Shown here piece by piece: positions 37,175 through 63,200 of a DNA stretch of 64,000 bases. The notes below the pieces were generated by a model. The model searched no databases and was not told the DNA's origin. It saw nothing but the letters and a program-made list of their open reading frames with translations. The stretch is from Nemertoderma westbladi (taxonomy: Eukaryota; Animalia; Xenacoelomorpha). How positions within the stretch are numbered: the first letter of the stretch is position 1; each line of letters opens with the position of its first letter. Both the position numbers and the translations under genes were made by a program. The stretch spans positions 1-64,000 of the forward strand of contig JAUCBJ010006608.1 of NCBI GenBank assembly GCA_032718475.1, given 5' to 3'.

Positions 37175-38091
37175 TGTTCTTGAACGGGACAATTGAACAT
37201 AATTGAACATAATTGAATTGGCAACAACCAAAATTTTTTCGCCAAAGGATACAATTGAATACTTTTGAAACGCTTAGTAATCTGGAAACTCTCTGTAGTT
37301 TGCCGCGATCTGTCACTCACTGCAGCTGGAAATGCGATAAGGATTTTGTTTACCTTTATAGTGTGCGGTTAATAGTGTCTAGTAGGCAGGCCTATAGTTA
37401 GTGAGGTTAAGGCATCTTCTGGTGTTTCTCTGTGCCCTCTCGGTGTCAGACTAATGGCGCGACATCTCCCTGCACTAAATTAATTATTCCATGGTCTAGG
37501 CTAGGCTCCTCCATCCATAAACCCATCCACTCCCATACACTCCATTAACCTCCATGTGGTCTTGTATGTCTCTCTACAAATACAGCCCATGTCCGCAATG
37601 TTATGCCCTGGGGGCTCTCTCATCTACTTGATATCAGACATACAGGCGCACCGCACACAAAGCCATTGTCGGTCCCAGCAAGTTAGCATCTGCTGTGTGA
37701 TCTATAAGATAACTCGCCATAACCTGCCAATCAGATGACTTGAACAAATGTGTTCACATGTGATCACATTGGATGAAATCTGCTTTTTCTGGTGGCCTGT
37801 ACTGTATAAAGAGCGTCAGCCTGCATTTAATAAATATATTTTAATACAAAACAGGTCGAACGCAAAGAGGCTTATAATGAAGACGAGTACTGCATTGATT
37901 ATATTCCTATAAACCACCTGGCTTTGCATATTGAACGTGCGTTTGGAAATAAGTTCGTGCTACCCTTCCGTGGGTGGTAGATGTCGCGGTTATGTATTGG
38001 TGGGTGGGGGGAGGGGGGGGGGGGGTGCAGATTAAAAGGGGTGAACACGTACTGTCCCCCTTTCTTTGATTAATTGGTGGTGTGGGTTAAT

Positions 38092-38289
38092 AGTAGTAGG
38101 AGAAACATAGACCTGGGAGTACTCCTCCCTAGCTTGGGCTACGGGCTAGATCTCGGAGGGCTATTAAAAATGCCAAATTCCGGTGCTAAATCGTGGTGTT
38201 TAATGACCATCTGTCACCAACAGTATTGATTCGCGTCGTTGCCTTGCCTTCAACCAATCGTTGCTTATTCACCTACGCGTAGCCTAACC
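38092..38289 (+). repeat. Left terminal inverted repeat (198 bp)
   Basis: Reverse complement of 54852-55049 with 3 mismatches. Confidence 0.97.
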
Positions 38290-38790
38290 TCGACCGATCG
38301 ACCGACCGACTGAATGCTGTTAACACTACTAACGACGACGTGGCCATCTACACGCATCACCACACATATACCCTACCCAATATTATATCGATTGCCAACT
38401 CAACGATTTACTCACCGCTAGCTAGTGCTACTCTTCGACAGCCATCGCCAATCCAACCAACCAAGCAGCCTACCAGTCCAGCACTATGATACGTGAAATT
38501 CCGCCACGTTCCAACTACACGTATACGAACATTTCCATAGTTACTCAACCTAACCAATCCCACAGCATCTGTGCGATATTGAAAGGCTACCACTAACATT
38601 ATACTGTGCGTTTTTATTATAATAATTATTGATTATTACACACAATCCTATGATTCATATTCTTTCACGTATTTCCTAACCACGCAACCAACCAGCCATT
38701 CATCCACGTTGCACCCCATCTCTTTTCTTATTCGTCGATGATTATGACAGGTCCCATCTCTTCTTCGTTGACTATGCCACATCGCAAATT

Positions 38791-38828
38791 TATATATAAC
38801 TGAATGTTTTTAATAAAATTCATCACTT
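38791..38828 (+). promoter_or_regulatory. Putative Pol II core promoter (TATA plus Inr)
   Basis: TATATATAA at 38791 and TCACTT about 30 nt downstream at 38823. Confidence 0.45.
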
Positions 38829-39055
38829 GTAATCTTCATGGTAATATATTGATACCATATCTAATTTTTTGTTCTCACTCTGAAATTGTGTTATTTCCTT
38901 AATAATTTCTACATTATCTTACTCGTTGTATATTCGTTGGTTGGAAACACTCGAATAAATGATACTGATTCCCACATTGGGTTTCTAAACGTAATTATGT
39001 AACTCAAAGGAAATCTCGTTTGGATGTGCGGGATAATTTTTAGTATCGATGAATA

Positions 39056-39133
39056 TATTAATCAAAGACGACTAGCAAAACTTATATTGAAACTGTTTCA
39101 ATATAAGTTTTTGCTATTCGTCTTTGATTAATA
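39056..39133. ncRNA. 78-nt near-perfect hairpin homologous to polB 43636-43675 (candidate hairpin/antisense RNA)
   Basis: Arms of 38 and 39 nt with one mismatch and one bulge, centred on 39094. The structure is seen directly; expression is unproven. Confidence 0.55.
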
Positions 39134-39230
39134 CAATTTTAGAGTGAGAACTATGGCGTCAATTTATTACAGCAATACGGTTTAAAATTTATCACTTGTA
39201 ATATTTTTCGTATTTATTATTATTATTATT

Positions 39231-40298
39231 ATGGCCTTAACGCAAAAAACCGGAGCAACAAATAGCTGGAAATTTACTTACAATAAATATACTTGTACCG
39301 TCGTTCACAGCAAGTATTTTATTGTGGAATCTCAGGAGGACAACGAATCAATTTGTTTTTCCCATCAAGATACCCGCTATTTGTTAGACATTCTAGAAAC
39401 AACAACCAACAACCAACATCAATCCAGACCAGCAATTATACCAGGTAGGATATATCCAACTCTTCGTTTTGCTCGGGGAAATTTGAATATTTCCATCAAC
39501 CCCACATCGGGTGATGTTTACGTTCAGAAACAAGGCAAATGTAAAGTTCTCAACAAAGCTTTTACTGAAGTTCTAATTCAATACAGAGGGAAATTATTGC
39601 AATTTCTCTCTCCACCGCTAGAGATTATTAGCGATCAATTCTACATTGAATTATCAAATCCAGAGTTTATTGGATTTGTAACAGCTTTTAAAGGAACCAA
39701 CTATGTTGGCTTATGGAAAATCAGCCTCAGATACGCTGATAGTGTTGGTTTTAACTATTATACAGGTTTCAATTTGTCAAAACAGGAACTAACCGTTTTG
39801 TTGCGAGAGTGGGACAACCAAGTCGATGAAACAGACAAGCATCTTTTTGATAAAAATATCATTCAATTATCAGACCGGCTCAAAATGATTAAAACCAATA
39901 ATAAAAAAATTATTATTATCACCAACACCGATAATTCTACTGAATTAGGTGCCGGCGGAAATTCTATTGAGTTGCATTACCTGAATGATAAAGCTCATAT
40001 TAGTTTTCTCAAAGAATCGATGGATGGCGTTTCTCTTACTGAAGCCCATGTTGACGGTTTTGTCCTTTTGGATAAACCTAAAGCATTCGTAGAGATCCCA
40101 TCACCTAATCCAGATGTTGAAGAGAGTTGCTCTCAACCGCAACAGGTCTTTCCTGAAATATTACCTCGAAAGCCAAGATCATCGAGTAAATTTACCAACG
40201 CATCACCTGCAAAGAAACAGAAAGTTGTCAGTAACCCAGTTCTAGTAGAGCCTGTTACTAATTCTCCATGGAAACCAGATTATTATCCTAATATGTAA
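39231..40298 (+). CDS. Polinton accessory protein, 355 aa, candidate PC4-like ssDNA-binding repeats with a disordered basic C-tail
   Basis: Intact ORF. FVTAFKGTNYVGLWK...GFNLSKQELTVL resembles the PC4 core. NLS-like PAKKQK. Confidence 0.7.
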   Translation: MALTQKTGATNSWKFTYNKYTCTVVHSKYFIVESQEDNESICFSHQDTRYLLDILETTTNNQHQSRPAIIPGRIYPTLRFARGNLNISINPTSGDVYVQKQGKCKVLNKAFTEVLIQYRGKLLQFLSPPLEIISDQFYIELSNPEFIGFVTAFKGTNYVGLWKISLRYADSVGFNYYTGFNLSKQELTVLLREWDNQVDETDKHLFDKNIIQLSDRLKMIKTNNKKIIIITNTDNSTELGAGGNSIELHYLNDKAHISFLKESMDGVSLTEAHVDGFVLLDKPKAFVEIPSPNPDVEESCSQPQQVFPEILPRKPRSSSKFTNASPAKKQKVVSNPVLVEPVTNSPWKPDYYPNM

Positions 40299-40344
40299 GC
40301 CTAATCATAAGTTAAACTCTTTGCGGTTTCCAATAGTCATAAGC

Positions 40345-40425
40345 GATTGGTGATTGGTGATTGGTTTAAAATTATTTCCCTCGCTAGCATATAAATGTTT
40401 AGATATAGTCAATATCATATCATTT
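40345..40425 (+). promoter_or_regulatory. Putative polB promoter (three ATTGG/CCAAT boxes, TATA, Inr-like)
   Basis: GATTGGTGATTGGTGATTGG, TATAAAT at 40390 and TCATTT at 40420. Confidence 0.5.
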
Positions 40426-40497
40426 CATTTTATTTTAATCTTTGGACATATTTTATTATTATCATTATTATTATTATTTATCTAAACAAACTTCAAC

Positions 40498-43400
40498 ATG
40501 GATAAAATAACAATATGTTGTTCATTCTGTCATATGAATGTAACTAGACATAATTATTTACGCCACCTACGCTCGCATTTTGAAAGTTATTCTTGTTTTA
40601 AGTGTCATGTCGTGACTTCATGCAGCGAAATTTGTAAACGACATGAAACAACTACTGGTTGTAAAGAAATGGAGTTCCGCACCTATCAATTGACTTGTTC
40701 TACCTGTAATAAAGAGTATACATATGAGAATTATATACGACACGATTGTCACTTGAAATGTTTCTACACAAGAAAGCGTAAATTTCCGCAACATAAAAAT
40801 ATAATATCCAGAAAAAACTTAAGGGTGGCTCTTGGTACATGCGTAACAATTTTTACGCGGGAACAAGAAGCTCACGATAATCATCTTGAAATTTATGTCC
40901 ACGACCTCCCAACTTCTAGAGATTATCCCGATGTAGAAACAGCATTAGTGCAAATTCGAGGTAATATTCTTCAGTTAATATTAGATAGATTGAAAGAAAT
41001 GAATGTTCAAAGACTGTGGTTAGGTCTAAATGTATTAATGTACAGATCACATTTTTCAGAAGGTGAGCAATTGGAAACCTTTTATTTTAATTCTTCCGGT
41101 GGTGCTATTAATACTGTAGATTCATCGCAAAGTTTTGACACATGGTTTGAGTATGTGGTGGAAAATATGTTACAAAAAATAGCCATCTTTAACACACGTG
41201 GTTCGGGGTGGCGTATTAAATCTTTATTAAGGGTTGAAATTAAATTAGCTGAATCTAAGTGTAGGTCGTTACTATATAAGGGGCATGGATATATGGAATT
41301 ACCTAAGGCTCTATCAGGTAAACAGTGTGTTATAAATGTACAATCGGCTGATAATGACTGTTTTAAATGGGCAATTATATCTGCAAAATTTAGTAGCAAA
41401 GTGAAAAACAACAAACAGCGTACTTCGTCGTACAAAAATTATATGAGTCATTTCATTTTTGACAATGGGAAAAATGATTATCCAACAGAGTGGCAGTTAG
41501 CGATTAAACTTTTTGAAAAACAAAATTCAAAATATATAATTAATTTACTATGTTGGAATAACGACAACAAACGCACCCCCGTATCTATATTAAGACAACC
41601 TCCGTTTAGTAAAATTACACCCGATAAACAGTTATTAAATATATTACTTGTAGTAAAAAATAACAATGTACCTAAACTGAATCATTATGTTTGCATAACT
41701 AACCTGAATCGATTGCTGAATATGAGAGCTCTTCATGTCATGAATAGGAAATATTGCGAAAGGTGTTTGACACATTTTTTTCGTGCGGAAGTTCTTCATC
41801 GACACCGTCTCGCCTGCTACCAAGGAAGAAGTCAACGATAGAAACTACCTAATAAAAAAAGAACACACATTAGTTTTACAAATTTAGATAGAACCTTAAC
41901 CCCATTGTTTGTCACCTACTTTGATATAGAATGTATCTTACAACCGTCAGTTAATAATCAAATTATACAGGAGCATATACAGTGTGCTGTGAGTTATTTA
42001 ATTGTTCCCAATACTGAATTAATTGATGCTCCAAAATGTCATTTGAAAACATTCGTAAAGTCAAATAAGAATAATTGTATTCAAGATTTCTTAGATTCAT
42101 TATATACTGATTTAACTGAATTATATTGTTGGTCAGAAATATACACGCATAAAACTATGTCATTTACTAATATTGATTTTGTAAATTTTGAACAAGCAAA
42201 ATTTTGTTTTTATTGTAATGTTACTTTAAATAATAATGTAGGGAAAAACAGACATCATTCACATATTACAGGTAAATATATTGCGGCAGCCTGTAATAGT
42301 TGTAACCGAAGTTTATCATTGAAACGATACCTGTATGTACTTTGCGGTCATAATTCCAACAATTACGATATACATTGTATATTACAAAGCGGATTTAGAG
42401 ATAAGAAATACACAGATTGGGATATAAAGGTTATACCGAGAAATACAGAACGATATATTTCACTGAGTGCATTTATCCCAATTAAAAACACTTCTAAGAA
42501 AATTGAGTTACGTTTCTTAGACACATATCAATTTTTAAGCTTTTCTTTAAGTAATTTAGTTGAGTGTTCAACAAAGGATGTAGCGAGTCATGATATAAGC
42601 TCAATTTTACCTATTACTCTACAAGAAATGAAATATTTTTATCCAAACTTGAATAACTCAACAATTAAACGGAAAGAAGTATTTCCATACGAGTACTTGA
42701 CAGATATAAATAAATTTAATGATACTGGTTTGCCGTCTATAAATAATTTTTTTTAGTAACTTAAGTCAAAAAACATGCACAATTGAAGATTATACGTTTG
42801 CGGGAATATCATGGGTAGAATTCGACTGTGTGAATCTCAAAGATTATCTTTTAGCCTATTTAAAACTCGATGTTTGTTTGCTTGCTGATATATTTGAGAA
42901 TTTTAGGAATGTTTGTAAACAAAATTACGATTTAGAAGCGGTTTTTTACTGTAGTATCGCGTCATTTACCTATGATTGCGCGCTAAAATATAATAAATGT
43001 AAAATAGAATTAATAAAGGATTATCAGACATATAGAGATTTTGAAAAATCAATTAGGGGTGGTGTTTCATTTTGTCGTAAGCATTATATAGAATCAAATA
43101 TACCAGGTACAAGTACATATGATTCTACTAAGGAAGAATGCCATATTTTTAATATTGATTTCAACTCTTTATATTCTGGGAATTTAAGTAAAAAACTACC
43201 CACCTCACAATTCAAAGAAGTAAGTATTAAACATTTAGAGAATGCAATTCCAGAAAAACTAATCGAGTACTTGGTAGATTTAGACATTGATGGATCTACT
43301 GGATATTTTTTAATATGTGATTTAAATTATCCCAAGGCTATTCACGATCAAACATTACAATTACCGTTAGCTCCTGAGCATTTAAGTATAAATGAATCAA

Positions 43401-45084
43401 TGCTTTCGCCTTATATGATGGAAAAATTTAATAACTTGTCAATACAAAGAGGTACCTCCCGTAAATATAGAATGTCTATACCAAAACTCATGCTGACACA
43501 ATTTGATAAAGAGTTTTATCATTTACATTTGAAACTGTTAAAATTTTATATAAAACATGGATTAATTGTTACTAAACTACATAAATTATATTCTTTTCAA
43601 CAAGAATTTGTATTTAAAAATTACATCGATTTTAATATTAATCAAAGGCGACTGGCAAAAAGTTATATTGAAACAGCTGTCGCGAAATTGCTCAATAATT
43701 CGCTGTTTGGCAAATCAATAGAAAAGATAAGAGATCGATGTAACTTCCGTATTGCAAATAGCAACGATAAATGCGATCAATTGGTAAATCGTATTAATCA
43801 TGAACAATTTATAATATACAATAATACACTATCAGGACATTTATTAGTGAAAGACTCTGTAACTCTCGATAAGCCTATATTTATTGGTAGCACTGTGTTG
43901 GACTTGGCTAAATTGGATATGTATGAGCTGTATTACAATAAATTGCTACCTATTGAGAAAGAATTAAACTGCCGTATTGAAATTGCTGCATCAGAGACTG
44001 ACTCATTGATAGGTTGTTACTATAATACATCGCAGAATAATTTTTTAAAAGCATTAATTAAAAATAATATTTTAGATACATCCAATTACCCTAAGGATCA
44101 CCCACTCTACAGCGATAAAAATAAATCCAGACTCTATTACTGTAAAGACGAACTAGCCTCACGTGAAATTAAACAAGCAGTATTTTTAAGACCAAAATTA
44201 TATTCAATTTTGGAATGGAATAATAAAAATATTCGTAGAGCAAAAGGTATTACAAGAGCTGTTATGGAAACGAATATTATACATGAAGAATATTTAAAAG
44301 CATATAACTCAAATGAAGAAATAAAAAAAAACATACACAGATTTCAATCTAAATTACATCGTATTTATACCTTAAAGCAAAATAAATTTGCACTCAGTAG
44401 CTTTGATGATAAACTTTATTGGGTTGATAAAAATCAATCACTTCCTTGGGGGCACTATAAAACAAACCTCAAAAAACCTATAAAAATATCAAATATACCA
44501 ATTTATGAAGAACCAAAAGACGACGGTGTTGATGATGAATATCAAATAGTAAATAAAAATATAAGTTGTAAGCAGATTATTTATGGACTTAATTTAAAAG
44601 AATTAAAAAATCAATTGAATGGTAAAATTGTACTCAAACCTAATCAGTTTATATATAAGGTATTTGGTGCAACCATATTAATGTTTACAAATGGACGAAT
44701 AACAATTCTCGGTAGAAAATATAATTTTAATAAAGTGAAAAAACATATATTAGAAAAAACAAACATTAATTTGATTTTTAAATCAATCAATTTGTGTACT
44801 TATATTTTTAGTATCGATACTGTAATTTATAGGTTACTTATAAACAATATCGGTTTTATGTTATATTTGATAATGTTAAACTAGAAATTTCATACGACCC
44901 TGAAATATTCAATAACTGTAAAGTCAGAATAAATAATATTGTTGTTGTTTGCTGTTTCTACACTGGTAAATGTACATTAATGTGTTCCCCGTTTAAATTT
45001 CATATATATTATCCTATATTCAACAAACTGGTTAATAATTTATTATTGTTTGGTGTGGGGGTTTTTGATGTAAAATATAATTAG
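40498..45084 (+). pseudogene. polB: Protein-primed family B DNA polymerase with N-terminal Zn fingers, endonuclease-VII-like insert and C-terminal TBP-like domain; disrupted
   Basis: Motifs RGSGW, YFDIEC (ExoI), HNSNNYD (ExoII), FPYEY, YLKLDV (ExoIII), IRGG, DFNSLY, KLLNNSLFGK, ETDS, KLY and AKG. Lesions: in-frame TAG at 41839-41841, an extra T in the T8 run at 42747-42754, and a frameshift near 44820-44835. Confidence 0.95.
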
Positions 45085-45791
45085 TGTGAGTGAAATTTAT
45101 TGTTGTTGCTGTTTGGTGGTGGAGATTTTTACTGTAAAATATATATATATTAAATTGGAGGGAGAAGAAATTTATGAATATTTTTTTTTTAAATCAACAA
45201 CTAGTTTGAGGGGAAATTAACTAACTAACTTCAGTAGAGCGATTGCTTGTAACACTCAAGTAGGCATAGTATACTCAGTGGCCGTAGCTAGCTAGCTAGC
45301 TAACTAAGCATCGCTGCTCACGAGTGAGCTACAATAGCGCATCTGTTACTTATGAGTGTGCGTGTGTGTGCAGCAGACAACGCTAAGCTCAGTGAGAAAA
45401 AGATTAGGGGTATGTGCTGGTATTCATAGTCAAAGACGACGCCATCCTATCTGTTACTAGTCTGTATACCGGCACATATTATTATTATTAAAACATCCTC
45501 TATGCATCTCCCTACATTCAGAATAGAACAATGAACAGAGCATATATCGCTAATCCGCATGGGAAAGGTTTATGTTCTACATTTTGTTAACTATGTTAAT
45601 TATTTTATAATTTTTTGTAATGTAAACATCTGCGACCCACTGCAAAAATATATATAAACTCAATTTTCAAACAATGACCTATAATTTTGTTAACCAAAAT
45701 AAGAAAAAAAAATAAAAATACCGGTATACTGTATCCACCCTGTCTGTTACCCTTAGACTATATATATAAACTAACCTGAGACAGCAAGAAG

Positions 45792-46193
45792 ATGACTTTC
45801 GCCTATATCAACAACCGGTCGTTGAAAAGCAGCATAAAGTTTGATTTTGAGAGTGAGGATACTTTTGTATCATCCTCAAACGTATCTGATTTGGAAATCA
45901 GATACATTAATAAAAAATTTGAAATCGGATTTACCAATATCATCAATCACGAACATGGTGTAACAAAGTTAGAAACAACAAAAAACTTTACTTTGAACAT
46001 AAGAATAAATCCAGGAACGGAAGAAGAAGAAGAAGTTACCGGTAATCAAAACGAATTAATACCACTACAAGAGAATTGGGAAACAGAGACCGCTGCAACT
46101 ATACCAGAACCGATAGAGACTATTTGGAAAGAAATTAAACTAGCAATGCCTACCTGTAATAATAATAGGCCTAATCATCAACATTTTTCATAG
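45792..46193 (+). CDS. Hypothetical Polinton protein, 133 aa
   Basis: ATG-initiated ORF about 25-30 nt downstream of TATATATATAAA. No recognised motif. Confidence 0.55.
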   Translation: MTFAYINNRSLKSSIKFDFESEDTFVSSSNVSDLEIRYINKKFEIGFTNIINHEHGVTKLETTKNFTLNIRINPGTEEEEEVTGNQNELIPLQENWETETAATIPEPIETIWKEIKLAMPTCNNNRPNHQHFS

Positions 46194-47248
46194 ATGGATA
46201 CTGGTATCTAACTAGTACACATGTACACCCGTACACTCATACTCATTTCTGCATTTATAAAGTAGACCTAAATGTCACCGGTCTGTGTATGTCTATATTA
46301 TATGTAATTTAACTTAAAAAGTGGACGCATAAATAAATAAAATAAACTAACTAACTATGTTTTATATAGGTTCGTTAACATAGAGTGAATGTTAGTAACC
46401 AGAGAATGTGGTGGATTTTATATAGTTATAGCTCAAACCACACCTATTGTATCAGCTAGAGTAACAGAGTGCGAGGGGATTTTATAGGGCCTATAGCGCT
46501 ACCGAGGCCTAACCATACCTATTGTATCAATGTGGTAGGGGGGCTTTCAGTTGAGGAGTACCGTAGTCATTAGGCCTATATGCCTAACGAATGAATGTGT
46601 GCCTATCCGTGTGTTCTAAAGGTTAACCGTAAAGCATATTGGGTCAACATTCGAAAAGGGGGCCGCATAAAGTTAACTATAGCTGTATAGGCTTACCTAT
46701 GCAACAGCAGTAGCCCGCAGTAATGTAGATTAGACCAATTAAAGTTGTAAACAGAAAATTGGAAGCATTCAAGTGTAATAACCTAATCCTTAAATCAAAG
46801 AAACCAGCACCAGCATGCTCTTGCTCTATTTAAGTATACCGGTACAAGAGTGCTACGGTGCCGGTACCAGTAGGCCTATTGTTAGGTGGGCCTCCTCTAA
46901 TGCTGCATTCACGAACCCCCATGTCGACTTAATTTAATTTTATTATTAGTAAGTACGGTACCGGTAACGCTAAAGCTCTGTGGTTGCTGTTGGGGCCATT
47001 CTGCCGTTCTACAGTTTAGCATTGTTGGTATATGTAGTAAAATCAGCTAGCTACTGGTAGTTAAACTCTGATACAACAGCCGGCTACCGGTAGGTGAGGT
47101 GTGTTTGTGTGTACGTGTGAAAACTTAAGCCCTATACCTTCAGTCAAACTGAGATATTAAAAAATAGATTTTAATGTTTTTATTATTTTTATTGACATTA
47201 AAACAATTACATTATAGCATCACATTACATTACATGCTTAGAGTAAAC

Positions 47249-47863
47249 CTACAGTACATCTTCCACCGCAGTTATTTCTTTCTGTTTATCATCATCATCA
47301 TCAGTCGCAGTTAAACGCGTTAAACGCTTTCTCACAAAAAATCGTTTCAATTCAAACCCACCGACATGTTTTGCTGAGCAATACCGCAGACAGTTATCCT
47401 TTGTGTTTAAGTGGAACGCACATTTATTTTCCAGTGCAATAAATTGATCGTGGAAGCGACAGGGGGTTAAATAATTGTAATATTGCTGATTATATATCCA
47501 CAATTTATCCATCGAATTTGCTGCGAGAACATCAAGTTGGGAAACTAATATTGCCCGCTTCATCAACCCAAATACATGTATATTTTTTTTATATTTTAAA
47601 TGTCTCTTCATGTATTTTTTAAAGTCATCTTGCGAAATGTCGCCGTAGTCCCAGGGCAAATGAGAAGTCATATCTCGTAAATTGTTTACGTGAGCTACAT
47701 CTAAAGCTGATAACTTAATATTAGGTGGGCCTTTAATTAAAAACGTCTTTACATTAGTTTTGGTGTAATTAGAATCGAATATAGCAAATTCTTTAAATAC
47801 TACCGGATACTCTTTATTGTCTATCTTATAATATTGAAAATCAACAAAAATAATATTATCCAT
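47249..47863 (-). CDS. Polinton-associated DnaQ/Maelstrom-like nuclease-fold protein, 204 aa
   Basis: IFVDFQ...VFKEFAI...HLPWDYGDI...IHVFG..K and C-terminal C..H.......CS..HV pattern. Confidence 0.65.
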   Translation of the reverse strand: MDNIIFVDFQYYKIDNKEYPVVFKEFAIFDSNYTKTNVKTFLIKGPPNIKLSALDVAHVNNLRDMTSHLPWDYGDISQDDFKKYMKRHLKYKKNIHVFGLMKRAILVSQLDVLAANSMDKLWIYNQQYYNYLTPCRFHDQFIALENKCAFHLNTKDNCLRYCSAKHVGGFELKRFFVRKRLTRLTATDDDDDKQKEITAVEDVL

Positions 47864-47894
47864 TTTATCTGATAAACAAAAGCTAAATGATTAA

Positions 47895-48350
47895 TTACAA
47901 TGCTTGTTGGTTTATTTTATAATAATTAACAAGCCATTTATATAATATTATTTCATTTATTTCCACATTATTTGTAAACGCACTCATTGGATAGTTTGTG
48001 TGAATTCGATTTACCAAGTAATAAAGACAGTATAGGCCGCATGTGGTCCTCCTTGGGTCTTTAAATTGTTTGCGAGTAGTACGCCATCTTGCGGAATTTT
48101 TCTCAAGCCATTTTTCGATGCATCTGTTTGGATATTTTGATCCGAATGAATCAAATAATTCAGCCTCATTATCTTGTATATATATTGCGATCCAATGAAT
48201 CCCAGGCAGATGCTCTTTATCGGTATTTACTATTAACCCATAATCTCTTTGCTTATTATTATTATCTAATTTAGGTAATTTATTAGCTGGAAACGCTCCC
48301 AAATAGTGACCACCCACTGGAAACATATCAAGGTCCTCTGTAGATAACAT
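47895..48350 (-). CDS. Adenain-like cysteine (maturation) protease
   Basis: IVNTD...GIHWIA...FDSFG...TCGLYC with His/Asp/Cys triad. The usual oxyanion Gln appears to be Lys. Confidence 0.92.
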   Translation of the reverse strand: MLSTEDLDMFPVGGHYLGAFPANKLPKLDNNNKQRDYGLIVNTDKEHLPGIHWIAIYIQDNEAELFDSFGSKYPNRCIEKWLEKNSARWRTTRKQFKDPRRTTCGLYCLYYLVNRIHTNYPMSAFTNNVEINEIILYKWLVNYYKINQQAL

Positions 48351-48423
48351 ACTTAATCGATATGTATTTCTTTCCTGCTATTTAAACTTAATGATTGATC
48401 ATAAATATTAAAAACGATTACAT

Positions 48424-48897
48424 TTATGCGGGTCGCTTTAAATCTCTATAAACTTTTTCTACAACTGACCTTGTTGACGGTTTCATTTTATTTAATGCTT
48501 TATTAATAACCGTATTAGCCTGCTGATGTAAGACCCGCTTACCTTTTGGTATTACGTGTTGTCTCATAAATTTTGTGGTAAATGGTAAAGCTTTTTGTAA
48601 AACTTTTTTAGCTAATGGCTTACCAAATTTTTTCAATGTCGATAAAGCGTCTGTAAATATACCTTCTCCGTGTTGATTTGCCCGCATACCTCTACGATAA
48701 TGCTGAAAACGACGTTGTTTTAAGTTTGGACCAAATGCACCAATTTGTTGACCGTAAGGGTCAATATATGAACCACCTCGAAAAACAGGAACTTGCGTCG
48801 AGCCTCTCGTACTTCTACCACCTTTAAAATCAGCAAGATTAGAGTCTGAACCACCATATTGAGGTTTACTGTATCTTTGAAATAAATCAGAATCCAT
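48424..48897 (-). CDS. Basic virion core / protein-VI-like precursor
   Basis: QYGG, VFRG and QHGEG motifs followed by amphipathic IFTDALSTLKKFGKPLAKKVL. Confidence 0.75.
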   Translation of the reverse strand: MDSDLFQRYSKPQYGGSDSNLADFKGGRSTRGSTQVPVFRGGSYIDPYGQQIGAFGPNLKQRRFQHYRRGMRANQHGEGIFTDALSTLKKFGKPLAKKVLQKALPFTTKFMRQHVIPKGKRVLHQQANTVINKALNKMKPSTRSVVEKVYRDLKRPA

Positions 48898-48898
48898 T

Positions 48899-49702
48899 TT
48901 AATTTATTCGTTTAAAGTGTAAGGTAATAGATGTTGTCCCGTATTCAAAATTCAAATCTTTTCCTTCTTTGTCTGTTATTTCAATATGAATGTATGTTAT
49001 CTTATATGATTTTTTTACAGGGATATAATGAATTGTATCCTTGACAAATTCTTTATTTATTACGCTACCATATTTCACGTCATCAGGTATCGCAACACGA
49101 CGAAGTAAAGCTAAACCAAAGTCATTAATTTATTGATTTTCAATTATATTAGGGCATAAAAATACCATCTGGTAAGCTTTTTCTCCATTTCCGATAACCT
49201 TTATTAAATAGCCCTTTATATTATTTTTCGTCTTCAAAATAATTTTAAAATTTGGATTTAAATTCGCGCCGAGATTATTTTCAGTAATTCCAAAATAATA
49301 GGCTAATTGTTGACCTATAAATAACTCTCGCACAGTTTTCCCTAAAATAAATTGCAATCTATTTTGCTGAGTATTTTCAACTATTTGTAATTTATCTTTC
49401 AACGCCCCCGTGTTAAAATAATCTATAATGTCATTGATACTGTAGAACAACCCGGATGGAAGTGTATCCTCAAAATTTTTTTTCCCTTTTTTTAATAAAA
49501 TAACATTCTCTACATTGTTATACATGGACGGCAACGTTGCTAAGTAAAATATACTTTTTGTACCTACCACCCAGTTTTCGTTTGGGTTTATAGGTAAGGC
49601 GCCATGGAAATTGATCTGATAACTACTAGCAGAATTACGTGGAAAATCAATTGGACAGGAGTTACTTGGTAGTCTTACATAGAATTCATCCATCGCTGCC
49701 AC
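48899..49702 (-). pseudogene. Minor capsid (penton) paralogue 2 with one in-frame stop
   Basis: FYVRLPSNS...FPRNSASSY N-terminus. After TAA at 49130-49132 the frame continues ...LLRRV...HYIPV...IEITDKEG...ITLHFKRIN*. Confidence 0.85.
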
Positions 49703-50558
49703 CCCATATTAACTTAAGTGTTATAACAGTGCGACCTCTGCTAAAATTAATTAATTCGCCTTGATCGTCACGTAAAGTAATTAAGATTGTTTTTAATTTT
49801 TTATTCAACAATGGGTAATAGCAAATGCTCTCGTATTCATGATTAATATATTTTCGATTTAATTGCGTTAAAGGGCAGGTTCTTAAGAGCGGAGCTAAAG
49901 CATCACCAACAAATGAGCTCTTAATAATATCAGTATATATGAAAATTGTATCTTTATTACGTGTTATATTCGTGGGAGCTGGAAAATCTAAAATGCCAAT
50001 TTCCGAAATTTTTGGTCCGCTATAATTTAAAATTAATATCGGCTGTTCTATATTGCTTAATTCATCTACTGTAGTGGTACTGTATATATCCCAATTCGGA
50101 ATATCCGGATGATTCTGATCCAATAATGGTTTTAAGCCTAGAATTTGTATTAAATCACCACGTAGACTTAATTGTATTTTTTTCAACTTTTTAGGAAATT
50201 TAAATTTAATTCTAGAATTATTTGTATTAAAAATGAATTCGAAATCTCTATATTTCGCTTCAGAATTAAACAGTTTATTTATATCATCAATAATCACTTG
50301 AATAGAGCTATGCATACCAGGAAATAAACTATATAATTTGGCATCTTTTGCATCTACCCCGATTGACAGCGAGATTTGAGTTTGCAGTGTAATATTACTG
50401 TATGTTGCTTGGTATTGAAGCTCAGCCAAACCAATTTTAGCGTTTGGACCAATATATAATTCTTCGGCTAAATCAACAGTAAACTCACTAGGATTATTAT
50501 TGGGGTAAGTGTTTAATGAGCTATCTGAAAGTAGAGTGATATATGTATCTGTGGCCAT
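49686..50558 (-). CDS. Minor capsid (penton) paralogue 1, 290 aa
   Basis: YITLLSDSS..YPNNNPSEFTV.L, IGLAELQY, IFIYTDII...VGD...PLLR, YYPL and ITLRDDQG. Confidence 0.9.
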   Translation of the reverse strand: MATDTYITLLSDSSLNTYPNNNPSEFTVDLAEELYIGPNAKIGLAELQYQATYSNITLQTQISLSIGVDAKDAKLYSLFPGMHSSIQVIIDDINKLFNSEAKYRDFEFIFNTNNSRIKFKFPKKLKKIQLSLRGDLIQILGLKPLLDQNHPDIPNWDIYSTTTVDELSNIEQPILILNYSGPKISEIGILDFPAPTNITRNKDTIFIYTDIIKSSFVGDALAPLLRTCPLTQLNRKYINHEYESICYYPLLNKKLKTILITLRDDQGELINFSRGRTVITLKLIWGGSDG

Positions 50559-50808
50559 TATTATTATTATTTAAGCTCTCTCTCTCTACTTGACTCCATT
50601 GTACATACAGCACAGTATAATGTTAAATTATAGACATCTGTGACCACGTTCATTGTCGCATCTTCTACAGTATATGCGAGGGATCAATATTTTACTGGCT
50701 TTATTTAAAACGGATGAACTATAGATATAGTAATATCATTCGAGTTAATATTGATTAATTACGGTCATATGCGACCAAAATGAATTAATATACAGTATAA
50801 ACCTAAGC

Positions 50809-51893
50809 TTATTGAATATGCTGTACCCACGACTGTTTCTTGGATCCGATGAATCGGACTAAATATTCTTTCTTCCCATTGCGTACACATTCTTTAAGTT
50901 TGCCAATATTTTTGTCAATTGGTAGATAAATATTACTATTCGGGTGGACCTTTTGGAGTTCGTATGAATAAAATGAGCCATTTATTATAGCTCCAGCGCT
51001 GTCCTTAATATCGAACATTACCGCTGGTACTCTATCCAACCTGACACGATGAATAATAAATAATTCACGTGTCCATTGTTCTCGATAGCCTTTAGCAAAA
51101 GCAGTACGATAGATAATCGTACTGTATCTCCAACTTTAAATTTTATTTTCTTGTGATTAATCTGTCTATATTTCCCATATAATCTATTCATTAATTCAGT
51201 TTCATTAAATTTATTAACTTCAATGGAAGTCATTTGTATTGTCCTATGATATGACCTATTATAAGCATAAATGAGCTTCGGTAAAATTTTTATCCAAATA
51301 TTATTTCCCCGTTGCGTGAAAATTTTGAACATCTTTGTTTTTAATGTTCTATTGAATCTCTCGACAATAGCCGCCTTATTCACAGAATACATTACGTAAT
51401 ACTGTATACCTAACGTATCTAAATATTTCCTTACAGATTTATTTAGAAACTCAGACCCTTGATCAGTCGCGATTCTGTTTGGTTTTCCTTTCTGGAATAT
51501 TTTTTGCAATATACTAATAATTTCAATACCCTTTTTTGTTTTCATACCATAGGCAAAAGCAAGCCTGCTAAAGGCATCAATACATGTTAATATATAGTTA
51601 TAATTATTATTTTGCGATTTATATTGCTGCATATCCACCAGATCTATCATATATATATCTTTTAAGCCTCCCGTAAATATTTTAGATGTTGGATAATGAT
51701 GTCTACGTGGAGCGTGAAGGGTGTATGTCTTTTGCCCGCTCAGCCATTTCTGGGCTTGTGCTGGTTTGATGTTTGCAGCTTTTGCTAATTTTGCAACACT
51801 TGCAAATCCCGCGGGGGATGAAGGATCTAAATAATTTTTTAACAGTTTTTTGTCTAAGCTTCGGCTTAAAATCGGTTTCATCTTGCGTGGCAT
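50809..51893 (-). pseudogene. int: RVE/c-integrase with chromodomain-like C-terminus; one frameshift near 51110
   Basis: YTLH, MIDLVDM, IDAFSR, TDQGSEF, VERFNRTLK, YNRSYHRTI and FKVGDTVR. The alternate frame continues FAKGYREQWTRELF...GSFYSYELQKV...YLVRFIG. Confidence 0.95.
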
Positions 51894-51944
51894 CTTTTCG
51901 ACAACCACAAGTAATATGTATATTCAAATCTCTTATAAAGGGCA

Positions 51945-52115
51945 TCACCGTAAGAACAACTGAAATTTTTTAATTATTTTCTTTGAAGTTGATGTTTTAA
52001 AGGGTTTTCTTTTTGTAGTATTTACTCTAGGTATATCTTGAGGTTTTAAATCAGTAGCTAACGGTTTACTCGATACTAAATATAATTTTCTAAATGTTAC
52101 TCCTGTTTTAACCAT
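51945..52115 (-). CDS. Small basic ORF, 56 aa (MVKTGVTFRKLYLVS...), possibly a shortened conserved Polinton gene
   Basis: ATG lies 2 nt after the upstream stop and the ORF fills the gap before the integrase. Confidence 0.4.
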   Translation of the reverse strand: MVKTGVTFRKLYLVSSKPLATDLKPQDIPRVNTTKRKPFKTSTSKKIIKKFQLFLR

Positions 52116-52117
52116 TA

Positions 52118-52501
52118 TTACCGTCCGCGGTTAATTATTTTCGCAATAGCTGCTCCAGCAGCGGCGGCACCGGCACTCGCGGCGAGTTTCGCACCAATGC
52201 CGAGTAAGGGTATTAGAAACGGTAGTATACCTCCAGATTGATTGCTTAACTTTTTTCTGTAACTTGATATATTTTTTGTTTTACAGTTGAGTGCTTTCGA
52301 TACCTTCTTATAGCGGCGAATATTTCTAAATGAATGAGGGGTCAATTGTACGTTACCTTTTAGAACATTTAATGCAGTATTTACAATGAGCCGTATTAAT
52401 TCGTTACTCACGGTATGGTTAATAAAATAAGTTCTTTGTTGAGGGGTAGCGCTGCGTAGAAATTCCAGTTTGTTACGATATTTCTGCACAAGTCTATTCA
52501 T
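52118..52501 (-). CDS. Conserved Polinton basic protein with QSGG cleavage-like site and hydrophobic C-terminal peptide
   Basis: ALNVLKGNVQLT...RKKL.NQSGG|ILPFLIPLLGIG. Confidence 0.8.
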   Translation of the reverse strand: MNRLVQKYRNKLEFLRSATPQQRTYFINHTVSNELIRLIVNTALNVLKGNVQLTPHSFRNIRRYKKVSKALNCKTKNISSYRKKLSNQSGGILPFLIPLLGIGAKLAASAGAAAAGAAIAKIINRGR

Positions 52502-52538
52502 TGTTGCAACATTATTGAAAATTGTTACAAAATATTAA

Positions 52539-53206
52539 TTATTTATCATTATTATTATTATTATTATTTTCGCTACGTTTATAGTCAATGTAATTTTTAA
52601 TGTAACAATTATGATTACGAAATATATCCGATCTAAATCTTAAATGTTCGGGTGTTTCCTGTCGTAAATCAATTAAGAAATGCGAAAATGGTTCAATTGT
52701 CGCATCTTGATAGGAATCAACTAAAAATTTGGTCTGCCCTGGTAACATCTGCTTCGCGAAATTTAAAACCGATAAACTGTCTCGCGGATTTTTCATTAAT
52801 ACTAAAGTATGGCTATTAATTGATCTTGTGCGGTTATGCTTCCCACCGTAAAACATGTTTTGCATTATAAAACAAATAAATATATTGGAATGATGAGCTA
52901 CCTTAGTAAACAATACAGTTAAAGCTGTACTGGACTCAGTTTCTGTTAATAAATCATCTATAATTAATAAATCTCGACTATTCACTAAACTATCTATATT
53001 TTCCGGCAAACCTTTGTAAAGGTGAGTAATACCCAGAATAGTTGGTGGATTGCTCCCGTAACAATATACAATTACTATGTATATAACAATAATTGATGCA
53101 ACTACAATATTAGAGTACTGCATATTTAATTAACATATGACACAACTACAGTATGTGATGCTCGCTGCAACAAAAGGTGCTATTTCCAATTATAGTATAG
53201 ACTCAT
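52539..53206 (-). pseudogene. A32/FtsK-like packaging ATPase with damaged N-terminus (no Walker A)
   Basis: VYCYG, LLIIDDL (Walker B), LFTKVAHH, MQNMF, KNPRD, QDAT and IDLRQETP. No GxxGxGK is visible upstream and that region has stops. Confidence 0.9.
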
Positions 53207-53219
53207 TTTCAATGTAATT

Positions 53220-53672
53220 TCAAGCATGGTGAGCATCTTTATACGCGAAATAATGATAGGTAACATCGGCGGTTTGGAAATCACTTCCCGAGAATTTCGC
53301 GCTAATGATTTTTTTATGTTCGCTGCTAAAAAAATAAGGAATATAGTAGCAACACCGTCGTACTATATTTCTATAAAAAATATTCTCCAATATTGTAAAT
53401 AAATCTCCTGGATCATTACTTTCCGCAGAAATATAAGTTATATTGCGAAGCTCTTTCCAATAATAGGGTTGGTATCTTGCCAACTTTATATTTAACTTAG
53501 ATATGGGTGCGCGACAAATAGGACAAATTTTAGAACAATAATTATTCATTTCGGAATATTGTATAATACATTGTACGCAAGTTGCATGTTTATTTTCACA
53601 TTTATAATAATCTCGATGTTGTTGCAATAACTTAGAATAGCAAACTGGACATTTTTCATTTAAAATATCCAT
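53220..53672 (-). CDS. RING (C3HC4) finger protein, putative E3 ligase
   Basis: CPVC...CENKHATCVQC...CPICR. Confidence 0.85.
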   Translation of the reverse strand: MDILNEKCPVCYSKLLQQHRDYYKCENKHATCVQCIIQYSEMNNYCSKICPICRAPISKLNIKLARYQPYYWKELRNITYISAESNDPGDLFTILENIFYRNIVRRCCYYIPYFFSSEHKKIISAKFSGSDFQTADVTYHYFAYKDAHHA

Positions 53673-53840
53673 TTTCCAAATTTTAAAGTAAATTGAAAAT
53701 AATTACCACAATACACAACAACAACAACAACAAACAAATCTGTTATACTGTATATGCAATTACTACTACAATTTTCGATTATTTAAAAACATCAAAATTT
53801 TATATATAATCATAAAATATTTATAATATAGAGGGAAAAG

Positions 53841-54284
53841 TCAAGAATCAATGATATTATCAACATATTCAACATTATCTGTTGATTCTTCAGGTTCGAT
53901 AAAGGATTCTTTTGAAATCATTACAATAAAGAAAGACATAATTTCGTAGGGGCTATGCCGATTTAGCCGTATTTCAAACTTTTCACCAGCTTCGTTGTAT
54001 TGTGTAATAACAATAAACCCCTCTATCATGGATAATAGTAAGATGTTGATTAATTTTCCCTCATGCTCAACTTTCAGGTTGTAATCTAAGAGATGAATAC
54101 TATTATCAGAAGCATCAATATCAATTGAGCTTAAAACTTTCCTGGCTTTTTCAGAAAACTCAATTTTATATTTATCATCTCCCTGACGGTAAATTGTATA
54201 ATCAATAACAATATAGGCTTGACCATCTTCTGCAAAAAATGAATGCCTTACTATTGGCATAACCATATCGGAATCAGAAGACAT
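53841..54284 (-). CDS. Hypothetical acidic Polinton protein, 147 aa
   Basis: Intact ATG ORF with a TATA-like (TA)n tract about 95 nt upstream. Confidence 0.65.
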   Translation of the reverse strand: MSSDSDMVMPIVRHSFFAEDGQAYIVIDYTIYRQGDDKYKIEFSEKARKVLSSIDIDASDNSIHLLDYNLKVEHEGKLINILLLSMIEGFIVITQYNEAGEKFEIRLNRHSPYEIMSFFIVMISKESFIEPEESTDNVEYVDNIIDS

Positions 54285-54851
54285 TATTTAATTTATTTTA
54301 TTGTAAATCAAACAAACAAAGTAAAAACTTTTAAACTAAAACCATTACAAATGATTAATTGTGATTAAAGCAAGAGATTATATATATATAAGATATTTTC
54401 AAAAATAATACAGGTCTTAAACTGAGAAATAGCCTAAATTCGGTTTATTGATTGGTTGATTAGCCGGTAGGGAACTACTGTATAAACAAAAAAATTATTT
54501 GGTTCTGCGTAATAATAATAATCACTAATGCTCGTATACGCGTAGCTGGAACGTGACGGAATCTCATGTATCATACTGGTTGGTTTGTTGATTTGGCGAC
54601 AGCAGTCGTGGAGTTGGCAATCAATATAATATAATATATGCATGATGCGTGTAGATGGCCACGTCGTTACCATATACAGTATACAGTGGTGGTGGTAACG
54701 TGGCAGTGGTGGTAACGTGGTGAAAAGGTGAATAACATTAGGGTTAGTCAGTCAGTCGAGTAAGGCGGGCATCGTGAGGTTAGGCTACGCTACGATTGGT
54801 TGATGGCAACTGCTGATGGTGACATATGGTGAAGTAAGGCAGACATCGCGT

Positions 54852-55049
54852 GGTTAGGCTACGCGTAGGTGAATACGCAACGATTGGTTGAAGGCAAGGC
54901 AACGACGCGAATCAATACTGTTGGTGACAGATGGTCATTAAACACCGCGATTTAGCACCGGAATTTGGCATTTTTAATAGCCCTCCGAGATCTAGCCCGT
55001 AGCCCAAGCTAGGGAGGAGTACGCCCAGGTCTATGTTTCTCCTACTACT
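54852..55049 (-). repeat. Right terminal inverted repeat (198 bp)
   Basis: Matches the left TIR and is followed by TSD GTTAAT. Confidence 0.97.
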
Positions 55050-55199
55050 GTTAATCTCTCATAACCTGATTTTGTGATACAGTCGCACAATTTTAATTTG
55101 TATCTCATAACTGGGCCTCGTGCTGCGCGAAGGCCCCACGAACGTGTAAGCTTATGCACGATGTATTTCATATAAATAAAAGCGAACATAGATGAAAAG

Positions 55200-57205: not shown

Positions 57206-57912
57206 CAATCAATAAAATCAAGAATTATCGAGAGCGCTCTAGATATTTTTTTAAATTGCCATTTAGGGGTTCCATAGACACTGTACATGATTGGACAGCT
57301 GATAATATTGTTTAATTAATCTACAGTTCTAACATTAATGTGTAATACACTAATATATATGCGTGTATAGTGGTACAACTGACAGAACTACGTAGAAGTA
57401 GCGGTGTGAGAGAAATGAACATATAAGGCCTCGGAATTTACAAATTAAACGTTGTGGTGGGCCTTCGGGCAACACGAGAGTCTATATGTGAGAATATCTT
57501 AAATATCTATTAGACATAGCGAAACTGCAAAATATATTGACAATAATTTATTGTATTACAGTAGGCCTATATATATATACTGTATGTGTATAACTTATTG
57601 TTAAAAACGTTTAAAAGGACCCTTCAAAGGTTCTTAAGCGTTTGAAATTAATGTTTTGTGTTAAATTGTTTAATGTTAAATTACCAATTTAGAGAAAGGA
57701 TCAGGTTAAAGTGGCACGTTACGGTATTCCAACCAAAACAATAAACGAAAATCAATAGAAAGGTTACACTTTTATTTTTTTTGTGAGTAATTATATGCGT
57801 TATTTTCCCCTGGAGAAGGATGACAATTACACATACTGTAACTTACATTGTGTGCTTTTATGTCCTATGATTTACATGAAATTAAATATAAATAAAATGA
57901 TTTTTTTAACAG

Positions 57913-58746
57913 GGTCAACAAATACAAGAACAGGTTGCTGCGTTGGAAGAACTGATAAAAGAACAGTTTACAGAGTTGAAAGGCCAGTTTACAGAGTTGA
58001 AAGAACAGAATACAGAGTTGAAAGAACAGAATACAGAGTTAATTGAAAAGGTTGGAGATTTGAAAGAACAGAATACAGAGTTAAAAGAAAAGGTTGGAGA
58101 TTTGAAAGAACAGAATACAGAGTTAAAAGAAAAGGTTGGAGATTTGAAAGAACAGAATACAGAGTTGAAAGACCAGTTTACAGAGTTGAAAGACCAGTTT
58201 ACAGGGTTAAAACTGTATAAGCTGATAGCGCCTATCCTAAAGCATAACGATGGAGTAAAGATTCAGCAAAGAGTTGATGGATCTGTTGACTTCTATCGTA
58301 ACTGGGATGAATATGTTGAAGGATTTGGCGACCCGAATACCAATTTTTGGTTGGGGTTGGAGACGATCCACAATGTGAGTGAAGGCGGGGTGAAGTTGAG
58401 GGTCGATTTGTGGTTCAACAACGAACACCGATACGCGGAATACAAGAACTTCTCTATCGGATCAGCTGCAACTAATTATCGCCTAAATGTATCCGGTTAC
58501 CATGGTACTGCTGGTGACTCATTGACATATCTCAACGGTTTCCAATTCACCACCAAGGACCGCGATAATGACAGGAGGGACTACGGCAACTGCGCCGTAA
58601 AACGTACTGGGGCGTGGTGGTACAACTACTGCGTGGTCAGTAACTTGAATGGAGAATATGGTGCGGGGGATAAGAAAGGACCTTATTGGGGTCGTTTTAC
58701 TGGATTTAATCCGGCTTCTCGAGTTGAAATGAAGATTTGGATTTAG
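57913..58746 (+). CDS. Terminal exon of a fibrinogen-related protein (heptad coiled coil plus FReD/FBG domain)
   Basis: TTTTTTTAACAG acceptor (phase 0), (ELKEQNT)n heptads, IQQRVDGSVDFYRNWDEYVEGFG, FWLGLE, FTTKDRDND, GAWWYNYC and SNLNG. Confidence 0.92.
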   Translation, partial: GQQIQEQVAALEELIKEQFTELKGQFTELKEQNTELKEQNTELIEKVGDLKEQNTELKEKVGDLKEQNTELKEKVGDLKEQNTELKDQFTELKDQFTGLKLYKLIAPILKHNDGVKIQQRVDGSVDFYRNWDEYVEGFGDPNTNFWLGLETIHNVSEGGVKLRVDLWFNNEHRYAEYKNFSIGSAATNYRLNVSGYHGTAGDSLTYLNGFQFTTKDRDNDRRDYGNCAVKRTGAWWYNYCVVSNLNGEYGAGDKKGPYWGRFTGFNPASRVEMKIWI

Positions 58747-60247: not shown

Positions 60248-63200
60248 TGTAACAATATGTGTTAATATAAATCTTGGTCTATTTATCTATTATTATTACA
60301 CATTGCCACGGTGAGGGGTTTATTGTGACAGCTATTTGGTTCAATACAGTATTATATTACTTTCTAGTGCTGGATATAGGTACGATCTAGGATGAGGTTT
60401 ATTGTTTTGATTATACTCAGTTCGATTACTATTACTTGTTTATATACATTGTTGCCACAATTGACGCATGGCGTCCTGATATGGTGACTCGAGTGGGATA
60501 CCCAACCAATTCTTAGAATTTATTATTTTTTGTACATTTGATATTGGCTTACGGACTTTATTCTACACTCTTAAGATGCGTATTTTTGCTTACGGCCACA
60601 CAATGTCCAATACATTCCATACTATTCCTTTACACTTACCGGTATTGACTCATGTCCTGTAGGAATAACATCTGTGAACGTAAACAAATCTACAAACGAC
60701 CCAATCCCTATATTATCTCTAGTCAAATTAGCTGCTGAACCTTTAGCATTTTACCTGTCTGAATTTTTCAATGCATTTATATAAAATCATGAACGTGACG
60801 ATTGGAACGAACAAATTGGTGTCTGGGTACCCGTTGAGTGACCCTTGACCCTGCGGGGGGAAGGTGAGCTCTGTTCCCGGGCGACAGCAGGAGGTCCCTA
60901 AAGGGGGGAGTGGGGTTAAAACTCGACCTCCACTTCCCAGAGCCTCTGACACCATCGGTGGATCGAGTCTACCTCCTAAATTCATGAAGAGACTACCATC
61001 GACTACGATGACACGATCCATAACCACACCAAGAGGCCCCAGAAGGAGAACGAGGACGAGATTTTCAAGGGTCTGAGGGAAAACATCAACAAGATGTTCG
61101 GGAAGTCTCAAACGATGTCACCAGGAGGGATAAGTAGATATTTGAGTAAAATAAACTACCATATACATGGTAACTCAAATAAGTGAACCACATAAAATCT
61201 CAACCATGAGACAATATATTAAAGGTAAAATAGGGAAGGTGAACTCGATTTAAAGTTAACAGTAGGAGGTCAGTTGATACGCAGTCCTACCCAGGTGGAA
61301 ACGGAAGGATTAAATCCTGAAGATTCCATCAGCAAAGTGGAAGAATGTGAGAGTGAGGGGAGCATCTGTGAGTCAATAGCATCCTCAGTTGTGGCTCAAA
61401 AAAATAAATCCATAGAGGAACGTGAGAAAAGAAAGAATAAGTAAAGAAGTAAAGAAGAGTAAAGAGAATTAATGAGAAACAAAAAACGAACGTGAATGGG
61501 AAGAACGTGAATGTGAATGGGAGGAACGTGAACGTGAATGGAAGGAGCGCGAATGTGAATGGAAGGAGCGTGAACGTGAATGGGAGGAGCGAGAATGTGA
61601 ATGGGAGGAGCGTGAACGTGAATGGGAGGAACGTGAATGTGAATGGGAGGAGCGTGAACGTGAATGGGAGGAGCGTGAATGTGAATGGGAGGAACGTGAA
61701 TGTGAATGGGAGGAGCGTGAATGTGAATGGGAGGAACGTGAATGTGAATGGGAGGAGCGTGAATGTGAATGGGAGGAACGTGAATGTGAATGGGAGGAAC
61801 GTGAATGTGAATGGGAGGAACGTGAATGTGAATGGGAGGAACGTTAATGTGAATGGGAGGAGCGTGAACGTGAATGGGAGGAGCGTGAATGTGAATGGGA
61901 GGAGCGTGAACGTGAATGGGAGGAGCGTGAACGTGAATGGGAGGAGCGTGAATGTGAATGGGAGGAGCGTGAACGTGAATGGGAGGAGCGTGAATGTGAA
62001 TGGGAGGAACGTGAATGTGAATGGGAGGAACGTGAACGAGAATGGGAGGAGCGTGAACGTGAATGGAAGGAGCGTGAATGTGAATGGGAGGAACGTGAGT
62101 GTGAATGGGAGGAGCGTAAATGTGAATGGGAGGAGCGTGAATGTGAATGGGAGGAGCGTGAATGTGAATGGAAGGAACGTGAATGTGAATGGGAGGAGCG
62201 TGAATGTGAATGGGAAGAGCGTAAATGTAAATTGGAAGAGCGTGAATGTGAATGGGAAGAGCGTAAATGTGAATGGGAGGAGCGTGAATGTGAATGGGAG
62301 GAACGTGAATGTGAATGGGAGGAACGTGAATGTGAATGGGAGGAGCGTGAACGTAAATGGAAGGAGCGTGAACGTGAATGGAAGGAGCGTGAACGTGAAT
62401 GGGAGGAACGTGAATGTGAATGGGAGGAGCGTGAACGTGAATGGGAGGAGCGTGAACGTGAATGGGAGGAGCGTGAACGTGAATGGGAGGAGCGTGAATG
62501 CGAATGGGAGGAGCGTGAACGTGAATGGGAGGAGCGTGAATGCGAATGGGAGGAGCGTGAACGTAAATGGGAGGAGCGTGAATGTGAATGGGAGGAACGT
62601 GAACGTGAATGGGAGGAGCGTGAATGTGAATGGGAAGAGCGTGAACGTGAATGGGAGGAGCGTAAATGTGAATGGGAAGAGCGTGAATATGAATGGCAGG
62701 AACGTGAATGTGAATGGGAGGAGCGTGAACGTGAATGGGAGGAGCGCGAATGTGAATGGGGGGAACGTAAATGTGAATGGGAGGAACGTGAATGTGAATG
62801 GGAGGAGCGTGAACGTGAATGGGAGGAGCGTGAACGTGAATGGGAGGGACGTGAATGTGAATGGGAGGAGCGTGAATGTGAATGGGAGGAGCGTGAACGT
62901 GAATGGGAGGAGCTTGAACGTGAATGGAAGGATCGTGAACGTGAATGGGAGGAGCGTGAATGTGAATGGGAGGAGCGTGAACGTGAATGGGAGGAGCGTG
63001 AACGTGAATGGGAGGGACGTGAATGTGAATGGGAGGAGCGTGAATGTGAATGGGAGGAGCGTAAACGTGAATGGGAGGAGCGCGAATGTGAATGGGGGGA
63101 ACGTGAATGTGAATGGGAGGAACGTGAATGTAAATGGGAGGAGCGTGAATGTAAATGGGAGGAGCGTGAACGTGAATGGGAGGAGCGTGAATGTGAATGG

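Follow-up and report, generated by a model that had tools for sequence, protein, structure and literature searches.

To our knowledge, the way in which Polintons control their own transcription has been little studied. Polintons, Mavericks and adintoviruses, as described in parts of PMC8502044 (Starrett et al. 2021), are ~17 kb in length and have terminal inverted repeats, a 6-bp duplication, a protein-primed DNA polymerase (pPolB), an rve integrase, an ATPase and a protease. The element analysed here, which lies in a window of 64,000 nucleotides, is like them in all these respects, but differs in that a gene for a protein like the TATA-binding protein (TBP) overlaps its polymerase tail and in that a search of this copy turned up no major capsid gene. 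An earlier note on this DNA stated that TBP is outside the canonical core genes of Polintons. This is right, yet the legend of Fig. 5 in PMC8502044 puts a TBP label on related viruses. In the available part of that paper's text the TBP gene is not discussed, and neither TBP nor TATA has a match in one of its supplements. Neither word is mentioned in the main texts of PMC11161782, 10.64898/2026.10.13.758929, PMC10748475 or PMC12721341, and in PMC12220804 TATA occurs only inside an author name. In the literature searched, a figure-legend label seems to be the whole coverage in print of Polinton TBP genes, and no report of a pPolB-TBP fusion was found.

Two other groups of proteins are close to what is found in the window. 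Fusions of pPolB with vOTU or terminal-protein domains and with a helicase have been described (parts of PMC11161782 and PMC12721341, respectively), which indicates that pPolB can bear extra domains. The TBP-like proteins of large dsDNA viruses tend to lose the positions that contact TFIIB and often accompany a viral TFIIB, according to parts of PMC7221094. Our analysis makes it probable that the element belongs to a family with a separate TBP-like gene overlapping the polymerase gene, whose product likely binds TATA-like DNA and would recruit host TFIIB and RNA polymerase II, and that the apparent polymerase-TBP fusion of the window arose from a one-base frameshift. In contrast to the pPolB fusions above, the TBP fusion is not a family trait.

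The element shows the AG/CT-ended terminal inverted repeats and the 6-bp duplication of a Polinton or Maverick. Its termini are AGTAGT and ACTACT, its inverted arms (38087-38292 and 54849-55054) are 206 nt long and agree at 98%, and identical copies of the target-site duplication were found at 38086-38091 and 55050-55055. The protein-primed PolB and the rve integrase are both present, with both genes broken in this copy, and so are a packaging ATPase and an adenain-like protease. The polymerase is interrupted by an in-frame stop (41839-41841) and shifts frame at ~42750, and the N-terminal part of the packaging ATPase looks broken too. The gene pair that matches an ORF cluster of related elements is presumably of the minor-capsid (penton) type. 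For the major capsid gene, profiles of clusters of 419-439-aa ORFs from related loci, which were taken as capsids, gave no match in this copy; this would reflect either a deletion or high divergence. A Pfam scan of 18 ORFs of the element gave no match to TFIIB. We conclude that the element is a decayed Polinton whose TBP-like gene is a separate one.

Table. Features of the Polinton element and of its TBP-like gene, with positions in the window.
Feature	Position	Strand	Evidence or remark
Polinton/Maverick (adintovirus-like) element	38092..55049	.	~17.0 kb, inverted arms and target-site duplication
pPolB	40498..44556	+	tblastn of 7 full-length relatives; frame ends at 44554-44556 in sister copies
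TATA-like box in polymerase tail, candidate own promoter (weak)	44479..44485	+	53 nt upstream of first TBP ATG
Two ATG codons in the TBP frame of sister copies	44532..44537	+	at 44532 and 44535; third in-frame ATG at 44505
Private frameshift creating the apparent polymerase-TBP fusion	44536..44542	+	sister-copy contigs
TBP-like gene, repeat 1 and linker	44540..44851	+	Pfam PF00352 E 0.017; BLASTP against L035 TBP E 7e-7; hhalign 83.9%
Internal frameshift of the TBP-like gene, window copy	44849..44853	+	sister-copy contigs differ in length at ~44851
TBP-like gene, repeat 2, stop at 45082-45084	44854..45084	+	PF00352 E 0.011; BLASTP against L035 TBP E 0.001; hhalign 41%
Adenain-like capsid maturation protease	47895..48377	-	Pfam Peptidase_C5 E 1.4e-5
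Two genes, the second split	48899..50570	-	match one ORF cluster (cluster 5) of related elements
Retroviral-type integrase	50809..51923	-	Pfam rve E 5.5e-11; frameshift at ~51110
Packaging ATPase	52539..53129	-	relatives align only from their residue 40-56 on

Several other features were observed in and around the element. Its left arm has a hairpin at 39056-39133 with a near-perfect stem of ~38 bp (-41.7 kcal/mol, z -12.7). The arms of this hairpin copy polymerase coding sequence at 43636-43676, with 35 of 45 columns identical across all three, and it could give rise to a small RNA that targets the polymerase of the element itself, or be an accident of replication. Upstream of the polymerase lies an intact-looking ORF of 355 aa (39231-40298) that matched neither a Pfam family nor anything in the related loci. 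Another, at 47249-47890 (213 aa), has no clear Pfam match and by eye is like 11226-11690 of L035, a related locus described below; it is possibly an accessory gene common to both elements. An ORF in the right arm (53220-53702) gave weak Pfam matches to a RING-like zinc finger. Elsewhere in the window, an intronless ORF at 57910-58746 encodes a coiled coil and a fibrinogen C-domain (Pfam E 2e-42), with a 21-nt-type repeat within the coiled coil; the fibrinogen C-domain points to an animal as the host. Large tandem arrays with units of 100 bp and 21 bp were found from 12422 onward and at 61341-64000.

In the window, an open frame at 42743-44884 does not stop at the end motif of pPolB but continues into TBP-like repeat 1, and the second repeat lies in a different frame at 44833-45084. 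The earlier note had read this arrangement as a replicase-TBP fusion. We aligned to the region contigs from four public runs of four studies (X1, X3, X4 and X5), these being contigs and not transcripts; a second, closer alignment covered X1 and X2, which come from one sample, with 16 records listed of 68. A frame-changing indel at ~44539, at the supposed linker, divides the window from its sister copies. This indel accounts for the full depth of X3 (1 contig, 10,833) and X4 (1 contig, 75.8), for 109,897 of the summed depth of 159,950 in X1 (7 contigs, plus one more variant whose effect on the frame is the same) and for 4.52 of 12.3 in X5. Some 31% of the summed X1 depth at ~44539 is outside the indel assignment, and the listed records suggest that this residue consists of contigs ending at the site. 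Among the listed contigs with at least 31 letters on each side of ~44539, all three are gapped (record 12 of X3, record 18 of X4 and record 25 of X5, from three studies). In X1 and X2, among the 16 records listed of 68, 10 of the 10 that cross the site are gapped and the other six end there as loose ends. The sole gap-free record over ~44539 among those listed is record 27 of X5, a 34-nt island with four mismatches and unrelated flanks.

The sister copies reach a polymerase stop at 44554-44556, five codons past the indel, which leaves a short acidic tail, and among the listed contigs with matching flanks no single frame passes through the junction. The open frame from pPolB into repeat 1 is real in the window, but the in-frame link was not borne out as a family trait. 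The earlier note had itself held that a stop between WGHY and the domain in intact sister copies would refute a fusion and leave a separate TBP-like gene, and it is such a stop that they carry. What looks like a fusion stems from a frameshift of one base that is private to this copy, and the sister copies are without it. In the region 44200-45300, single contigs of X1 and X3 have a mean word depth of more than 10,000, as against ~75 in X4; this may mean that the element is present in those samples in very many copies or as free DNA, depth being no copy count.

The earlier note's other main claim, that TBP homology follows the pPolB end, was upheld. PF00352 is the best Pfam family for each half independently, with both E-values short of the standard of the curated cut-off, so that each half alone stays below it while the two repeats are colinear by profile. 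To score them together, we used a read-through of 181 residues with an X at the internal break. Against a profile built from 109 TBPs of archaeal, eukaryote-like and viral-contig type, to which it aligned colinearly across both repeats, it scored 17.4 bits (best of 500 shuffles, 10.1), and against a profile of 68 related small TBPs it scored 37.2 bits (best of 500 shuffles, 9.4). Since these scores are above those of all 500 shuffles, the resemblance to TBP is more than chance. Of 30 ESM Atlas hits for half 1, 28 fell into TBP clusters, at a low recognition score, and half 2 had no usable match.

The window protein is highly diverged, with an identity of 14-24% to any TBP. No TBP came up when either half alone was compared by sequence with solved structures. 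Word-indexed protein searches with half 1 gave nothing at longer or near lengths, which is weak evidence. A scan of viral contigs with the polymerase-TBP stretch returned no locus, and one with the TBP alignment returned one contig, already in the comparison set; in a genome search with PF00352, 0 of 7 were positive. Folding half 1 from its single sequence gave an uninformative model (pLDDT 39.9), and a structure search with it gave no match with Z of at least 5. The tree left the window protein unplaced, on an end branch of 7.9 changes per column, and its grouping with the L035 family had a support of 60/17. The TBP fold of the window family is predicted from the profile matches and from the model of its relative in L035.

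L035 is the one locus with a TBP among 110 loci with related polymerases (815 kb, 7,533 ORFs), which come from distant relatives and include many short loci. It has an intact polymerase of 1615 aa with its own stop and, 5.5 kb away and just before the ATPase, a separate TBP of 169 aa that matches PF00352 at 56.7 bits. Among the 7,533 ORFs this TBP is the best match of the window read-through (E 1e-4), and each half of the window protein aligns with the corresponding part of it. A search over the range of 92-296 aa found 81 relatives of the L035 TBP, of 99-207 aa, of which 77 have PF00352; among these 81 proteins the L035 TBP is the one with a known element context. Its AlphaFold model, built with an alignment of 53, has a pLDDT of 90.8 and matches human TBP (1cdw) with a TM of 0.82 (E 2e-12); the match to the TBP-like proteins of large DNA viruses (BFVD) was weaker. 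Like the members of this family, which are minimal two-repeat TBPs of ~165-175 aa, the window protein has a shortened hairpin in repeat 1, and it scores 37 bits on their profile as against 17 on the cellular-type profile. It differs from them in its 14-24% identity and in its gene position, the L035 gene being just before the ATPase and not at the polymerase. Genes like those for KilA-N and a parvovirus-type phospholipase A2 adjoin the L035 TBP (L035:11783-14128).

The earlier note had allowed for a separate TBP-like gene as a fallback, and this is what the sister copies have. Their TBP-like frame extends upstream into ATGs of its own at 44532 and 44535 and overlaps the polymerase tail by ~25 nt; it is open from 44484, ~70 nt ahead of the polymerase stop. 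Within the gene, the window copy has a second break. It had been placed at 44820-44835, a position that we rejected because the length difference of the sister-copy contigs lies at ~44851 (4 contigs in X1 and 2 in X3; the contigs of X4 and X5 end at 44849 as loose ends). Of the listed differences among sister copies in the TBP frame, 9 of 13 are silent, against 19% expected (p 1.3e-4, with at least 13 differences in all, transition bias outside the model and sites that are not independent). The listed silent ones make up 4 of 4 before the internal break and 5 of 9 after it, and the four replacements cluster at 44884-44891; at the polymerase end, 4 of the 9 listed differences are silent. Since most of the listed differences in this gene are silent, it appears to be under constraint, and the silent-site bias speaks for constraint on the coding sequence in both of its frames.

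The TATA-like box in the polymerase tail could be the own promoter of the TBP-like gene. It was found post hoc, by chance such a box is expected in ~4% of 30-nt windows within polymerase coding DNA, and the diverged sister variant in X4 differs at it. The 14 regions upstream of element genes have no common promoter word, only AT-rich words.

The positions of the wedge phenylalanine pairs and central asparagines of TBP were checked on the alignment. Three wedge phenylalanines and both central asparagines align in the window protein; the fourth phenylalanine, the first of repeat 1, is ambiguous and falls in the shortened hairpin. At the two acidic TFIIB-contact positions of the C-terminal lobe, as defined in part of PMC7221094, the window has Asp and Glu and the L035 family has Glu and Glu. 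The proteins are like cellular TBPs (human 1cdw, yeast, archaeal), with a predicted two-repeat saddle, a TM of ~0.8 for the L035 model and DNA-binding aromatic positions largely kept. They are unlike the TBPs of large dsDNA viruses in that the acidic TFIIB-contact residues are kept and that the 18 ORFs of the window element include no TFIIB match. From these residues we infer that the window protein may bind DNA and may contact TFIIB.

On the reading that we prefer, this Polinton family would encode a separate two-repeat TBP-like protein of ~184 residues, whose start overlaps the last polymerase codons in another frame. The protein would likely bind TATA-like DNA at the element's own promoters and would recruit host TFIIB and RNA polymerase II to them, which makes it a likely promoter factor for the element's own genes. 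The separate gene may instead encode a protein that is no longer a promoter factor but binds AT-rich DNA in replication or packaging, or lures away the partners of host TBP as a decoy. The long end branch, the hairpin shortened as in the L035 family, the loss of the conserved glycine after the last strand of repeat 2 and the place of the gene beside the polymerase on the replication-side strand are all consistent with such a role. However, both acidic TFIIB-contact positions defined in part of PMC7221094 are kept, and a purely structural DNA binder would need neither; we consider this alternative unlikely.

With a promoter factor from a separate gene as the preferred reading, the forms in which polymerase and TBP would still be joined have little probability. 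The earlier note proposed that a fusion links replication with transcription. On such a reading the overlap of the two genes would be functional, with a minority allele or +1 frameshifting yielding a polymerase whose TBP saddle tethers it to the AT-rich DNA of the element, coupling the two processes, and we regard this as quite improbable. As for a true fusion, confined to a minority subfamily to which the window belongs, the window frame is open through the junction, part of the X1/X2 depth is outside the indel assignment with 16 of 68 records listed, and related viruses have polymerase-helicase fusions (part of PMC12721341). But no listed contig with matching flanks passes ~44539 without a gap, and at 44264 and 44426 the window copy has letters found in none of the runs. 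Since this copy is broken in several other genes, one further break is unremarkable. The breaks at 44539, 44851 and 42750 are each at short single-letter runs, which fits long-read assembly error and slippage mutation alike. Nor do the relatives carry a TBP tail: none of 150 polymerases matched one of the two TBP profiles (lowest E 0.66 and 0.52), the median length of the tail past the pPolB end motif is 20 aa (motif found in 138 of the 150), and the fused form was found in 0 of the 150 proteins and 0 of the 110 loci, these being distant relatives and many of them fragments. We regard a true fusion as very improbable.

The two genes may also be separate in the DNA while some of the ribosomes slip by +1 within the overlap and make a fusion protein. 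The frames do overlap, the TBP frame being open well ahead of the polymerase stop; but this frame has its own ATGs and an upstream TATA-like box, no recoding signal was noticed by eye, and 5.5 kb lies between the two genes in L035. We give such a shift hardly any credence. That the TBP resemblance is a chance product of AT-rich DNA is refuted: although each half is below the Pfam cut-off and the solved-structure sequence search with either half alone gave no TBP, two independent halves match the same family in the correct order, with a score far over the shuffles, with the L035 TBP as top match among all ORFs of the related loci and with a silent-site bias among the listed differences in both halves.

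This element is a clear case of a frameshift in a single copy that fakes a domain fusion in a repeat family. It adds a very divergent Polinton TBP and a new gene position, in overlap with the polymerase tail. A constrained TBP gene with TFIIB-contact residues suggests a model in which a 17-kb element would bring its own promoter-recognition factor and borrow TFIIB and RNA polymerase II from the host.
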